Positions 2,971 to 10,003 of a DNA stretch of 10,368 nucleotides are shown here, piece after piece. Source of the stretch: a virus. The translations under genes were made by a program, and so were the position numbers. The notes beneath the pieces are model-generated. The model was not told where the DNA came from. It was given only the letters and a program-made list of their open reading frames with translations, and did not search any database. Numbering within the stretch: position 1 is the stretch's first letter; each line of letters opens with the position of its first letter. The stretch is from UHGV virus genome UHGV-0067349, one strand, 5' to 3'.

Positions 2971-3328
2971 TATTGGCGTCCTGCATCATGAGAAAGACAA
3001 TCATGGCAGCGCGGAGTGGGTTTTCATCTTGAGTCATATGATATGGGGTACTATCACTGCCAACTTTTCTATGCGCTGCCTTCCATAATCCATTTTCTGG
3101 CGCTGGAATAATGCCAATTCTGTTCTCTACGATAATCGGCTCTGCGTCTGATGGGCTTTTACAGTAATCAACCGTTTTTATTGCATAACCAGTTTCGTCA
3201 TCCCACTCAACACCAACGATTGATGTTCCCAACTTTGCTATTTCGCAATCTTCGGGAGCAAATCCACAGCAAATTGCCACTCGCTTGTTAATTTCAAAAT
3301 CACTTAACTGTGAATAATCCATTGTCAT
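2963..3328 (-). CDS. Hypothetical nin-region protein between ninE and ninF (NinX position in P22-like order)
   Basis: Track ORF 2963..3364. The likely start is ATG 3328 (ATGA overlap with the ninE stop) or ATG 3322 (GAGGA 8 nt upstream), giving M(TM)[31 protein letters not shown]... Family not recognised; synteny only. Confidence 0.55.
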
Positions 3329-3501
3329 TTCCTCGCACGATGTCTTAGCCACCGGATATCCCACAGGTGAGCCGTGTAGTTGAAGGTTTTTACGTCAGAT
3401 TCTTTTGGGACTGGCTTGCGTTTATTTCTGGAGCGTTTCGTTGGAAGGTATTTGCAGTTTTCGCAGATGATGTCTGTGATACTTCGTCGCTGTCGTCTCA
3501 T
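3325..3501 (-). CDS. ninE: NinE
   Basis: Internal ATG at 3501 of track ORF 3325..3546 gives [58 protein letters not shown] (58 aa). Matches lambda NinE from memory. ATGA overlap with the ninB stop. Confidence 0.75.
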
Positions 3502-7801: not shown

Positions 7802-8518
7802 ATGGAAAATAAAAAATCACTGACGACAGAACAGCTCGAAGACGCTAAGCGGCTTAAGGCTTTGTATGAGTCAAAAAAGAAAGAATTGGGAATAACCCAA
7901 TACTCAATCGCTGATGAACTGGGTATCACCCAAGGAGCGGTAGGGCATTATCTTAATGGCAGAAACGCGCTAAACGTTGAGGTTGCATCTGGTTTTGCAC
8001 GATTGTTGCAAGTCTCAATTGCTGATTTTAGCCAGTCAATTGCTGCCAAGGTTGCAGAACAGGCAGAAAGCCTTAAGAGCGATGCCAACGTAAGGTATGC
8101 AGGGGAATACAGAGCAGGAAAGAGGTATCCGGTGTTAAGCAGTATCCAGGCTGGCTCGTGGTGTGAAGCATGCGAACCATACACCATTAAAGACATAGAT
8201 GTTTGGCTTGAGTCTGACGCGCATATTCAAGGTAATGCGTTTTGGCTTAAAGTGGAAGGTGATTCAATGACGGCACCGGTTGGGTTAAGCATTCCAGAGG
8301 GAACATTCGTTCTTTTCGATACCGGAAGGGAGGCGATCAACGGCAGCTTGGTCATAGCAAAACTTTCTGACTCTAACGAAGCAACATTCAAGAAGCTGAT
8401 AATCGACGGCGGAAATAAATACCTCAAGGGACTTAACCCTGCATGGCCTCTCGTGCCAATCAATGGAAACTGCAAGATTATAGGCGTTGCAATTGAGACA
8501 AAACTAAGGCTGGTTTGA
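7802..8518 (+). CDS. cI: CI prophage repressor (HTH N-domain plus LexA-like S24 autocleavage C-domain)
   Basis: 238-aa ORF MENKKSLTTEQLEDAKRLKALYESKKKELGITQYSIADELGITQGAVGHYLNG... Parallels lambda cI, with AG cleavage site (IQAGSW), catalytic Ser motif VEGDSMTAP and Lys motif TFKKL. Divergent from, and heteroimmune to, lambda. Confidence 0.9.
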   Translation: MENKKSLTTEQLEDAKRLKALYESKKKELGITQYSIADELGITQGAVGHYLNGRNALNVEVASGFARLLQVSIADFSQSIAAKVAEQAESLKSDANVRYAGEYRAGKRYPVLSSIQAGSWCEACEPYTIKDIDVWLESDAHIQGNAFWLKVEGDSMTAPVGLSIPEGTFVLFDTGREAINGSLVIAKLSDSNEATFKKLIIDGGNKYLKGLNPAWPLVPINGNCKIIGVAIETKLRLV

Positions 8519-8535
8519 TCACGCAAGGGGCGATT

Positions 8536-8904
8536 ATGGTTGGAACCGCTATAGCAAGCTTTTTGGGGATGTTGGCAATCTCAACAATTTACGGCTTAGC
8601 GCATGCTTTTATTGCGAAATCTCTATCAGAAAAAATAAGCCAGGCTTGGGCGCATAGATCAGCTCGTTTCATGATTCTGGTGATCATGGCAATACAAGGG
8701 ATATCTGCATTTATCCTCTATGGATCAAGCTTATGCCTATTGTATCAAGGCGCGACATTTACGCCTTACACCAGTGATTACGGAACTCTATACGATGGTA
8801 GTGAAGACATCTCTATGGCTTGGATTGTCTTTGGTTTATCTATGGCCGTGTCTGTTGTAGCAGACATCATTAAGGTAATTCTCGTCTTAACCTTCGCTGA
8901 CTAA
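8536..8904 (+). CDS. Three-TM membrane protein co-transcribed downstream of cI (rexAB-position moron); function unknown
   Basis: ATG at 8536 with AAGGGG 5 nt upstream, 17 nt after the cI stop, same strand. MVGTAIASFLGMLAISTIYGLAHAFIAKSLSEKISQAWAHRSARFMILVIMAIQGISAFILYGSSLCLLYQGATFTPYTSDYGTLYDGSEDISMAWIVFGLSMAVSVVADIIKVILVLTFAD. Three hydrophobic helices. The track start at 8515 is an upstream TTG. Confidence 0.65.
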   Translation: MVGTAIASFLGMLAISTIYGLAHAFIAKSLSEKISQAWAHRSARFMILVIMAIQGISAFILYGSSLCLLYQGATFTPYTSDYGTLYDGSEDISMAWIVFGLSMAVSVVADIIKVILVLTFAD

Positions 8905-9037
8905 CCCATAATCCCGGCAGCAATAGCTATCGGGATCCACTTCACATATCCCGCATAAAAAGCACTGAACAAGCAGACACCGAAAAAAATAAATATCCTT
9001 TGTATTCATTTACTTATCATTATTTCACCAAAAAATA

Positions 9038-9079
9038 AATACCTTGGGTATTTACACAATAAAATACCTACAGTATTCT
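9038..9079 (+). promoter_or_regulatory. OL operators and PL promoter
   Basis: OL2 9038-9052 AATACCTTGGGTATT and OL1 9063-9077 AATACCTACAGTATT, the same AATAC-N5-GTATT motif and 25-bp centre spacing as OR1/OR2. PL: -35 TTTACA (9051-9056), 17-nt spacer, -10 TATTCT (9074-9079), identical to the PR -10. Confidence 0.55.
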
Positions 9080-9125
9080 TTAGCCATCAGCAGGACGCTG
9101 GAAGCCAAACGGAATAGATTGGCAG

Positions 9126-9167
9126 GCTCTTTAACATTGATGGGATTGTCCCGCCGAAATGCGGGAA
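9126..9167 (+). promoter_or_regulatory. nutL (boxA plus boxB)
   Basis: boxA GCTCTTTAACA (9126-9136), a 12-nt spacer, then boxB hairpin TCCCGC-CGAAAT-GCGGGAA (9149-9167). Core identical to nutR; about 40 nt downstream of the predicted PL start. Confidence 0.6.
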
Positions 9168-9680
9168 CTGAGTTTAACCAAACAGGAGGTGCCGTAATGG
9201 TGCACTAACGCGGTTAGACCGCAGCCGAAAGGCAATGCAGCAGTAATGATGCTGCCCCGAGTCGCGTAATGGCGAGCAGGTTTAGCAGACCGATGTGAGG
9301 GTAAATAAGGGAACATGCTCCGGAAAGGCAGCGCGAATGCCAGACGCGCACCGGTTATCAGCGGCTAATAAGCGACAGAGACTCAAGGGCATGAGCGCGC
9401 TCACTGCGAGAGTGTGAGTCAAAGAGTAGTTGGCTTTGGGGTGACGTGAAGTGCAGCTGCACGACGGCAACCGGAAGATAAGCACCCGGCGCGTCACCGC
9501 CAAAGTCAATTCCATAGGCGTTATGCAGCCGCCACCATATTCAAGAAAGCTGCACAAGAGGTAGGAGGATTTATGTGAATACTTACATTCAGTTGAGAGA
9601 TTAATTAAATAGAACTGATCGAGCAGAGTCCATAAAGGCTCATAAATGCTCTTCCATCCCCGTCTAATTGGCGGGGAAGG

Positions 9681-9716
9681 AAACAACTTTGTAATAAAAA
9701 AATTCCAAAGTTGTTT
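9681..9716 (+). promoter_or_regulatory. 11-bp perfect hairpin immediately upstream of the N ribosome-binding site
   Basis: AAACAACTTTG-(14-nt A-rich loop)-CAAAGTTGTTT, ending 4 nt before GGAGG and 14 nt before the N ATG. Analogous in position to the RNase III-processed leader hairpin that modulates N translation in lambda. Confidence 0.4.
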
Positions 9717-9730
9717 CATCGGAGGTCAAC

Positions 9731-10003
9731 ATGACAGTAGTCATTACATATCTGGCTGACGATAACGCCAGAAATCGCCGCAGAGCACGCAGACAGGCTC
9801 AACGTGAACAGGCAATGCAAGAGCAGCGACTGGCGCGAAAGATTGCGCTAAAGCTCTCTGGTTGCGTCAGAGCAGACAAAGCAGCATCACTCGGAAGCCT
9901 TCGCTGTAAGAAGGCAGATGAATGCAGTGGAAGTATTTGCCTGCCAAACGTAGCCATTTACGCGGCAGGCTACCGGAAATCAAAACAACTGACGGCGAGA
10001 TGA
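9731..10003 (+). CDS. N: Antiterminator N (arginine-rich motif); reading frame appears interrupted relative to the conserved C-terminus
   Basis: ATG at 9731 with GGAGG SD. MTVVITYLADDNARNRRRARRQAQREQAMQEQRLARKIALKLSGCVRADKAASLGSLRCKKADE... carries an ARM like lambda N (QTRRRERRAEKQAQW). The lambda-like N C-terminus (..GEMTCVGRQKQRGKSIPAYYD, stop 10057-10059) is in the -1 frame (open 9922-10059). Confidence 0.6.
   Translation: MTVVITYLADDNARNRRRARRQAQREQAMQEQRLARKIALKLSGCVRADKAASLGSLRCKKADECSGSICLPNVAIYAAGYRKSKQLTAR

Follow-up and report, generated by a model that had tools for sequence, protein, structure and literature searches.

What occupies the leader between the early left promoter PL and the antitermination gene N in this prophage? 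The window (the whole stretch of DNA analyzed, 10,368 nt of virus genome UHGV-0067349) carries a block there which a preliminary description had singled out as GC-rich, dense in hairpins and free of ORFs, and for which it had considered a structured leader with a regulatory role, a small RNA made by processing, and an insertion that has degraded. Based on comparison with related phages, homology searches, and covariation analysis, we conclude with high confidence that the block harbors a genuine, conserved structured RNA family of ~240 nt.

The PL-N leader and its insertion

The window is the immunity region of a lambdoid prophage, read from right to left. Its main features are as follows.

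201-404, minus: holin.
648-803, minus: tRNA-Thr(TGT) and tRNA-Asn(GTT), between Q and holin.
1078-1701, minus: Q-like antiterminator.
Further genes, all minus: RusA, DnaB-like P, an O-like gene, cII, and cro.
7802-8518, plus: CI-type repressor.
8515-8904, plus: 129-aa ORF between cI and PL, phrog_6534 (a PHROG family of unknown function), E = 2e-77.
9051-9079, plus: PL-like promoter of sigma-70 type, TTTACA-17-TATTCT, aligning to the annotated pL/OL1-OL2 of HK620.
9125-9166, plus: nutL, with boxA GCTCTTTAAC and boxB hairpin CCCGCC-gaaau-GCGGG, by alignment to HK620.
9169-9419, plus: inserted module with a type A middle domain, absent from HK620 and CUS-3.
9429-9510 (within 9420-9510), plus: native long N-leader hairpin, 82 nt, 98.9% identity to HK620, outside the new element.
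9511-9730, plus: CUS-3-type leader extension, 220 nt, common to CUS-3 and HK140, outside the new element.
9657-9677 and 9681-9716, plus: hairpins of the leader extension (predicted fold).
9721-9725, plus: N Shine-Dalgarno sequence GGAGG.
9731-10003, plus: N antitermination gene, phrog_271, E = 4e-34.

Because the PL/OL/nutL stretch is ~99% identical to annotated sequence of HK620, nutL could be placed at 9125-9166 (98.6% identity to the HK620 stretch annotated as nutL, L002 1526-1567) and the PL transcription start near 9087 (9086-9087). With the promoter at 9051-9079 and N at 9731-10003, the leader of ~645 nt from the PL start to the N ATG was confirmed, as was the elevated GC content (0.53-0.58 over ~9100-9500 vs. 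0.36-0.42 on either flank). The claimed lack of ORFs holds for the plus strand, whose longest frames are 54 aa (9044-9208) and 40 aa (9295-9417), but not for the minus strand, which has a 145-aa ORF at 9282-9719. Upstream of PL, the phrog_6534 ORF takes the position of rex in lambda and of hkaS in HK620, and its end is overlapped by a 40-aa minus-strand ORF (8887-9009) that belongs to no family. A tRNA/tmRNA search of the window detected no others besides the two late-region tRNAs.

The block had been treated as one unit. Comparison with HK620 and CUS-3 showed instead that it consists of three parts (9169-9419, 9420-9510, and 9511-9730). HK620 matches 9100-9168 and then runs straight into 9420-9510, indicating that 9169-9419 is an insertion, whose point in HK620 is L002 1569|1570. 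CUS-3 has a leader like that of the window, 9511-9620 included, but without these 251 nt, and the insertion is clean relative to the otherwise identical PL-N leaders of both phages. The N leader without the new element would still be ~394 nt long, and the hairpin at 9681-9716 ends 4 nt upstream of the N Shine-Dalgarno sequence.

The nutL boxA (CTCTTTAAC, 9127-9135) is 89% complementary to GTCAAAGAG (9418-9426), directly past the insertion point. As these two sequences are ~35 nt apart in HK620, the insertion splits a possible native boxA pairing. A CAAAG motif is also found 3' of the last helix of the module at several other genomic locations.

An IS or MITE was rejected as the identity of the insertion, given no inverted repeats at 9169/9419, no target duplication, and 1-2 copies per genome. 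A group I or group II intron was likewise rejected: the nucleotide before the insert is C, its last nucleotide is U, its start is not GUGYG, and no Rfam intron matched. The preliminary description had named a match to a known gene or IS element as grounds for refuting it. No such match and no terminal repeats were observed, and none of its sequence-based grounds for refutation applies.

Folding energy z-scores fail to pick out the inserted element. The energy of the 251-nt insertion, folded as a single sequence, is not beyond chance (z = -1.30; 22 of 200 shuffles fold equally well), and the case for structure in it therefore rests on covariation. The strongly stable portion of the leader is 9420-9745, far below its shuffles (z = -6.26).

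Distribution and genomic slots of the module

BLAST matches to the module were detected in mEp213 (99%), two Stx2c phages (88%), a Providencia phage (84%), Hafnia phage yong1 (83%), Klebsiella phages RothC and RothD (80%), and Escherichia phages 733R5 and 716R3 (78%); altogether, 15 of 50,697 phage records contain it. An exact pattern combining two invariant stretches, GTTAT.AGCGGC...CTCAAGGGCAT, served to gather the main set of homologues; it hit at least 120 IMG/VR contigs among the matches listed as well as 35 bacterial species representatives, 33 of them Enterobacterales. The remaining two records, titled Vagococcus and Bacillales, were taken to be contamination. Among complete E. coli genomes, 113 of 5426 have the module, each with 1-2 chromosomal copies and none on their plasmids. 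Conservation as a unit in other prophages, a check proposed for the whole block, was found for 9169-9419, for which BLAST and pattern matches extend across phages and Enterobacterales. Within the window, an nhmmer search with the family found a sole copy at 9185-9417 (E = 5.6e-61).

The left operon of mEp213 (L001) has two N genes in its annotation, different from each other (391-723 and 1876-2148), and the element lies directly upstream of the second, an HK620-type N.

Copies of the module were never annotated as such, and some are covered by spurious "hypothetical proteins" (in RothC and some E. coli genomes). The Rfam search that the preliminary description had proposed recognized no family: at the gathering threshold, Rfam 15 reported two tRNAs only in the whole window, a permissive search of 8900-9800 gave a best E of 3.3, and nothing consistent was found in nine homologous loci. 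A weak match to STnc100 in one locus (17 bits, E = 8) was not reproduced and was discarded. The literature searched by topic and by sequence string, including a 2025 review of phage small RNAs, did not describe the element.

Clustering of flanking ORFs into families defined three slots, in all of which the module is in sense with the surrounding operon.

PL slot, between nutL and N: CI-type repressor upstream and N downstream, as in the window.
Late slot, between the Q-terminator and the lysis genes: upstream, two families of Q-like antiterminators; downstream, holin or genes of unknown identity.
Spanin/terminase slot: Rz-like spanins upstream, e.g., in phage 733R5.

In one late-slot locus (L019), the end of Q at 3258 is followed by a terminator-like hairpin at 3328-3351 and then by the element, which starts at 3359. 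The Klebsiella phage RothC has it between Q and two tRNA genes. Ten of 161 loci have same-strand tRNAs beginning 4-160 nt past the element; on its upstream side there are none within 1.5 kb. In the window itself the late leader is filled by tRNA-Thr and tRNA-Asn, and elsewhere that slot holds the structured element, sometimes together with tRNAs. The interval between the element and the next gene is 58-390 nt and variable in content, and may include tRNAs or an RNase III-type hairpin.

The element had been described as a feature of the PL-N leader. The same module also occurs after the Q/tR' terminator and between lysis and terminase genes, which contradicts this restriction and argues against a dedicated regulator of N. 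No promoter-like site was detected within the element, no terminator-like or RBS-sequestering expression platform past its last helix, and no co-occurring partner gene near it. For a riboswitch assignment we looked for coherent downstream genes together with an expression platform and found neither, which disfavors it.

Conserved fold and start-stop minicistron

Covariation was analyzed in 70 nonredundant copies with less than 93% mutual identity. The resulting structure has the following parts, all on the plus strand.

9210-9222: P1 hairpin, GCGG-uuaga-CCGC; 88% paired over the 70 copies, nearly invariant with little covariation.
9224-9233: P2 hairpin, GCC-gaaa-GGC; double changes in three of three pairs, variable in length, missing from some copies.
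9237-9255: P3 hairpin, GCAGCA-guaauga-UGCUGC; six of six pairs compensated, 97% paired.
9256-9301: middle domain, closed by Pa (CCC 9256-9258 with GGG 9299-9301).
9262-9265/9272-9275: P4, inside Pa.
9279-9281/9289-9291: P5, inside Pa.
9302-9319: A-rich linker UAAAUAAGGGAACAUGCU; variable, purine-rich, without a supported helix.
9320-9354: P6 (CCGG 9320-9323 with CCGG 9351-9354); five U-A substitutions.
9331-9335/9345-9349: P7 (GCGCG with CGCGC), conserved loop aaUGCCAGA; five of five pairs compensated.
9355-9381: joint UUAUc-AGCGGC-uaauaaGCGACagaga; AGCGGC almost invariant.
9382-9395: P9 hairpin, CUCA-AGGGCA-UGAG, invariant loop; examined by targeted variant scans.
9400-9418: P10 terminal hairpin, CUCAC-ugcgagagu-GUGAG; double changes in three of five pairs, 98% paired.

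Over the 70 copies, the structure of 43 pairs is 94.1% paired (98-99% for P6/P7). Double-sided changes were observed in 27 of the 43 pairs (154 cells), and none of 500 column shuffles reached any of the five measures used; the preliminary description had named covariation as a way to check the block, and the insertion clearly shows it. When partners were slid by 1-3 columns, pairing dropped to 30-36%, with at most 14 pairs showing double changes. RNAalifold independently found 15 compensated pairs. G-U outnumbers A-C in the helices (178 vs. 77), an excess which favors the plus strand as the likely RNA strand.

The short hairpins listed in the preliminary description are all present in the sequence. 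CGCGG/CCGC, GCAGC/GCTGC, and GCGCG/CGCGC correspond to P1, P3, and P7 of the covariation-supported structure, but GAGCGCGCTC forms no helix of the conserved fold, and TGCAGCTGCA forms the apex of the native long hairpin in the N leader and so lies outside the new element.

The middle domain, which includes the invariant joint GAGUC, comes in three variants, one with an additional hairpin, and its MAFFT alignment across these variants is imperfect. Its closing helix is defined by long-range covariation between Y9258 and a purine ~40 nt downstream (C-G 82, U-A 46, and U-G 2 of 132 copies), with a corrected mutual information of 0.74, second-highest among all column pairs; this is the pair that establishes Pa around the P4/P5 domain. 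An alternative pairing of CCY with GGG of the P9 loop was superseded by this covarying CCY/RGG helix.

As the homologues were retrieved by pattern, the invariance of motifs is partly due to ascertainment, which is partly offset by the copies found by BLAST and by variant scans. Single-base variants of AGCGGC were sought at C224, G225, and G226 (three of its six positions) and were found in 0, 1, and 0 contigs vs. at least 120 with the consensus; the lone variant has no compensating change. P9 is invariant in the pattern-selected set, and copies with an altered 5' arm were therefore sought separately: 12 of 15 CCCA copies have UGGG (C-G), and one CUAA copy has UUAG (A-U).

Two further pairings of this region were rejected. 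A pseudoknot of GAG (9259-9261) with CUC of CUCAAGGG does not agree with the CCC copies, which keep GAG and compensate inside P9. Pairing of CUCAAGGGCAUGA (9382-9394) with the tip of helix 26 in 16S rRNA (834-846) would involve 10 Watson-Crick pairs, or 13 with G-U, at a whole-element P of ~0.3, and is contradicted by the P9-internal compensation. No antisense target of CUCAAGGGCAUGA was found within the window. The CCGC arm of P1 has two possible partners, the GCGG on its upstream side and the invariant GCGG further downstream in AGCGGC, and RNAalifold took the long-range option.

Some natural copies lack the middle domain. The short forms at L138 3794-3941 (Xenorhabdus sp.) and L033 5561-5729 keep the minicistron described below, P1, and the full 3' domain and are missing P3, Pa, P4, and P5, and the 3' part stands alone at L011 2438-2558. 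Such short forms suggest that the 3' domain may be the functional core. In three other loci (L032 3288-3688, L057 4631-5031, and L104 628-1045), the minicistron and P1 lie ~125 nt upstream of the remainder, as if interrupted by an insertion.

The module can be divided into three: P1-P3 on the 5' side, the variable middle domain Pa/P4/P5, which is dispensable, and a 3' domain with almost no variation (P6/P7, AGCGGC, P9 with its AGGGCA loop, and P10). Among the three readings offered at the outset, a structured RNA is supported by covariation and conservation, and a degraded insertion disagrees with the intact state of the insert.

Directly upstream of the fold is a very short reading frame, also on the plus strand.

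9184-9189: Shine-Dalgarno sequence AGGAGG, read from the sequence, 7 nt before the ATG.
9197-9208: minicistron ATG GTG CAC TAA (M-V-H-stop), whose stop ends 1 nt before P1.

Statistics were taken from 104 copies anchored by a parser. A Shine-Dalgarno-like motif is present 4-12 nt upstream of the start codon in 99 of them (ATG 94, TTG 5), and the distance from the start codon to P1 is 12-14 nt in 96 of these 99. The frame has one codon in 15 copies, two in 13, and three in 63 (91 of 99 have three or fewer), and six or fewer in 98 of 99; as a control, the other two frames are open for at least 12 codons in 102 of 198 cases. The encoded peptides show no conservation (MKH, M, MVH, MKQ, MHQ, and others). 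From this fixed start-to-fold spacing and the unconserved peptides, we infer that the selected feature is a ribosome start with an immediate stop rather than the peptide. The arrangement has the sequence make-up of a leader minigene of the lambda bar type, i.e., a Shine-Dalgarno sequence, a start, a few codons, and a stop in a transcribed noncoding region.

Possible function and known systems

The module may move as a unit by recombination among noncoding transcribed slots of temperate phages of Enterobacterales. In this prophage it would be transcribed from PL right after nutL, and it is thus presumably made only in lytic growth. Since the downstream genes differ by slot (N, holin, tRNAs, terminase), it is most likely an autonomous RNA unit. 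Our leading hypothesis, to which we would still give somewhat less than an even chance, is that the element is an autonomous, ribosome-engaging phage noncoding RNA of the lytic cycle, possibly freed by processing at flanking hairpins or tRNAs. Selection would act on ribosome loading, with the mRNA entry side of an initiating or terminating ribosome held against the folded RNA; the minicistron would stabilize the RNA or couple it to the ribosome, and the invariant 3' domain would be the binding site of a partner from host or phage. As no partner gene co-occurs with the element, this effector role of the 3' domain is conjecture. A bolder proposal is a new class of ribosome-engaging phage RNA in which the minicistron parks a host ribosome and the 3' domain acts on or through that ribosome; we regard it as rather unlikely. 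If true, such an RNA might sense or manipulate translation status in lytic growth or under translation-targeting defense, and it would be an architectural bacterial counterpart of the short-ORF-plus-structure devices of eukaryotic viruses.

The element could instead be a generic cis-acting leader device that modifies its own transcript. Ribosome loading might shield long untranslated leaders from RNase E or Rho, the minicistron might sense translation capacity by refolding P1 against the GCGG of the AGCGGC joint, or the RNA might act on RNA polymerase, as HK022 put RNA does. The slots, all in sense and placed where long transcription units begin or soon after (just past nutL, just past a tR'-like terminator, and before terminase), fit such a device as well as they fit an autonomous RNA, the CCGC arm of P1 does have two possible GCGG partners, and leader minigenes are able to affect downstream expression (PMC3262186, PMC8708949). 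However, no covariation separates the two P1 pairings, the distance and content up to the next gene vary (58-390 nt, with tRNAs or an RNase III-type hairpin), no expression platform follows P10, and these phages already have N and Q, so that we consider a cis device possible but on balance unlikely. The same variety of downstream genes (N, holin, tRNAs, terminase-region genes, and unknowns), together with the absence of a recognizable expression platform and of any resemblance to known Rfam aptamers, makes an aptamer of the riboswitch kind, or a small-molecule sponge (e.g., for a nucleotide signal), improbable, even though the fold has many helices, of which the peripheral ones tolerate change, and its unpaired AGCGGC, GGUUAU, AGGGCA loop, and CCYGAGUC show a high degree of invariance.

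We would place a little less weight still on a self-cleaving or otherwise catalytic RNA, whose own boundaries would be the sites at which it processes polycistronic lytic transcripts. In size, conserved core, and phage context it is like small or medium ribozymes, and it adjoins processing-prone features (boxB hairpin, terminator hairpins, tRNAs), but it matches no ribozyme family, its boundary nucleotides differ between slots, and its ends violate the rules of group I and group II introns. A functionless selfish or decaying insertion (a MITE or IS remnant), or a DNA-level site, would account for presence/absence polymorphism with exact boundaries. This reading is very improbable, as strand-specific compensatory changes with G-U tolerance imply selection on RNA, the start-stop frame is kept across diverged copies, and the terminal inverted repeats, target duplication, and higher copy number of such elements are lacking. 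Finally, a protein could be encoded by the 145-aa minus-strand ORF (9282-9719) or another frame, given that an ATG ORF is present and minus-strand frames are often open across the core. Yet the 145-aa ORF has no PHROG family match and spans three independently assorting modules, the purine-rich composition of the plus strand accounts for the open frames, and the core lengths differ by non-multiples of 3, their spread over all three classes modulo 3 (50/48/34) arguing against coding; its probability is close to nil. Together, the functionless and the coding readings retain very little probability.

E. coli and its phages have the genomes that have been studied most intensively, and structured RNAs with conservation of riboswitch or ribozyme grade are seldom found there. 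This element is missing from Rfam and genome annotation even though its sites include the late Q leader and the classic lambda PL-nutL-N leader. It offers a compact and genetically tractable case, as it is present in mEp213 and in many E. coli lysogens, and leaders of the CUS-3/HK620 type are natural deletions. It could help to ask what prophage-borne RNAs such as GOLLD and ROOL do, and could show why a peptide-less start-stop frame is kept by selection, with constant spacing to an RNA fold. If it acts on ribosomes, defense systems, or transcript fate, it would be an RNA-level accessory module ("moron") for lambdoid phages. At minimum, a new RNA family entry would end the spurious "hypothetical proteins" calls over the element.

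Several known systems share parts of this architecture. In CaMV 35S leader shunting and T4 gene 60 bypassing, a very short ORF or a take-off site stops before a stable structure. The resemblance is one of architecture alone, as the element has no conserved landing codon, restart site, or ORF past P10. Lambda has a long hairpin, the RNase III hairpin, between nutL and the N ribosome-binding site; the very stable hairpin at 9429-9510 of the window is in the same position and is part of the native leader, outside the new element. The lambda bar minigenes are located in the PL operon. Like these and other leader minigenes, the element has an RBS, an ATG, one or a few codons, and a stop within a noncoding part of the transcript, but those minigenes are without a conserved multihelix fold at a fixed distance. 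Other leader minigenes include those of the EHEC LEE1 leader and axe-txe, and some minigenes affect the expression of neighboring genes (PMC3262186, PMC8708949).

The element is found at a position after PL equivalent to that of HK022 put RNA, but N, nutL, and Q are present here, and its size and fold are different. put is ~70 nt long with two stem-loops, and HK022 lacks N. Two comparisons disfavor a put-type RNA. In likeness, HK022 is not among the 15 matching phage records and the element has ~10 helices over ~215 nt; in location, the post-PL position is shared, but the phage is not N-less, N and nutL being present. HK022 putL and putR are structured RNAs transcribed in cis just 3' of early promoters in a lambdoid phage (PMC9378689). 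The element is also found 3' of the late terminator, a position from which it could give polymerase no help in getting past that terminator.

GOLLD is expressed upon prophage induction. Like GOLLD and ROOL, the element belongs to prophages, is presumably expressed in lytic growth only, and has tRNAs directly past it in some loci. It differs from them in having no sequence or model similarity, in its size (~240 nt vs. roughly 500-800 nt), in its restriction to Enterobacterales, and in its conserved start-stop minicistron, of which we know no example in GOLLD or ROOL. Both are conserved, intricately folded noncoding RNAs of unknown function, often located in prophages and beside tRNA genes (PMC5737381). 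They are the nearest known kind to the element, without homology, and its minicistron is new.
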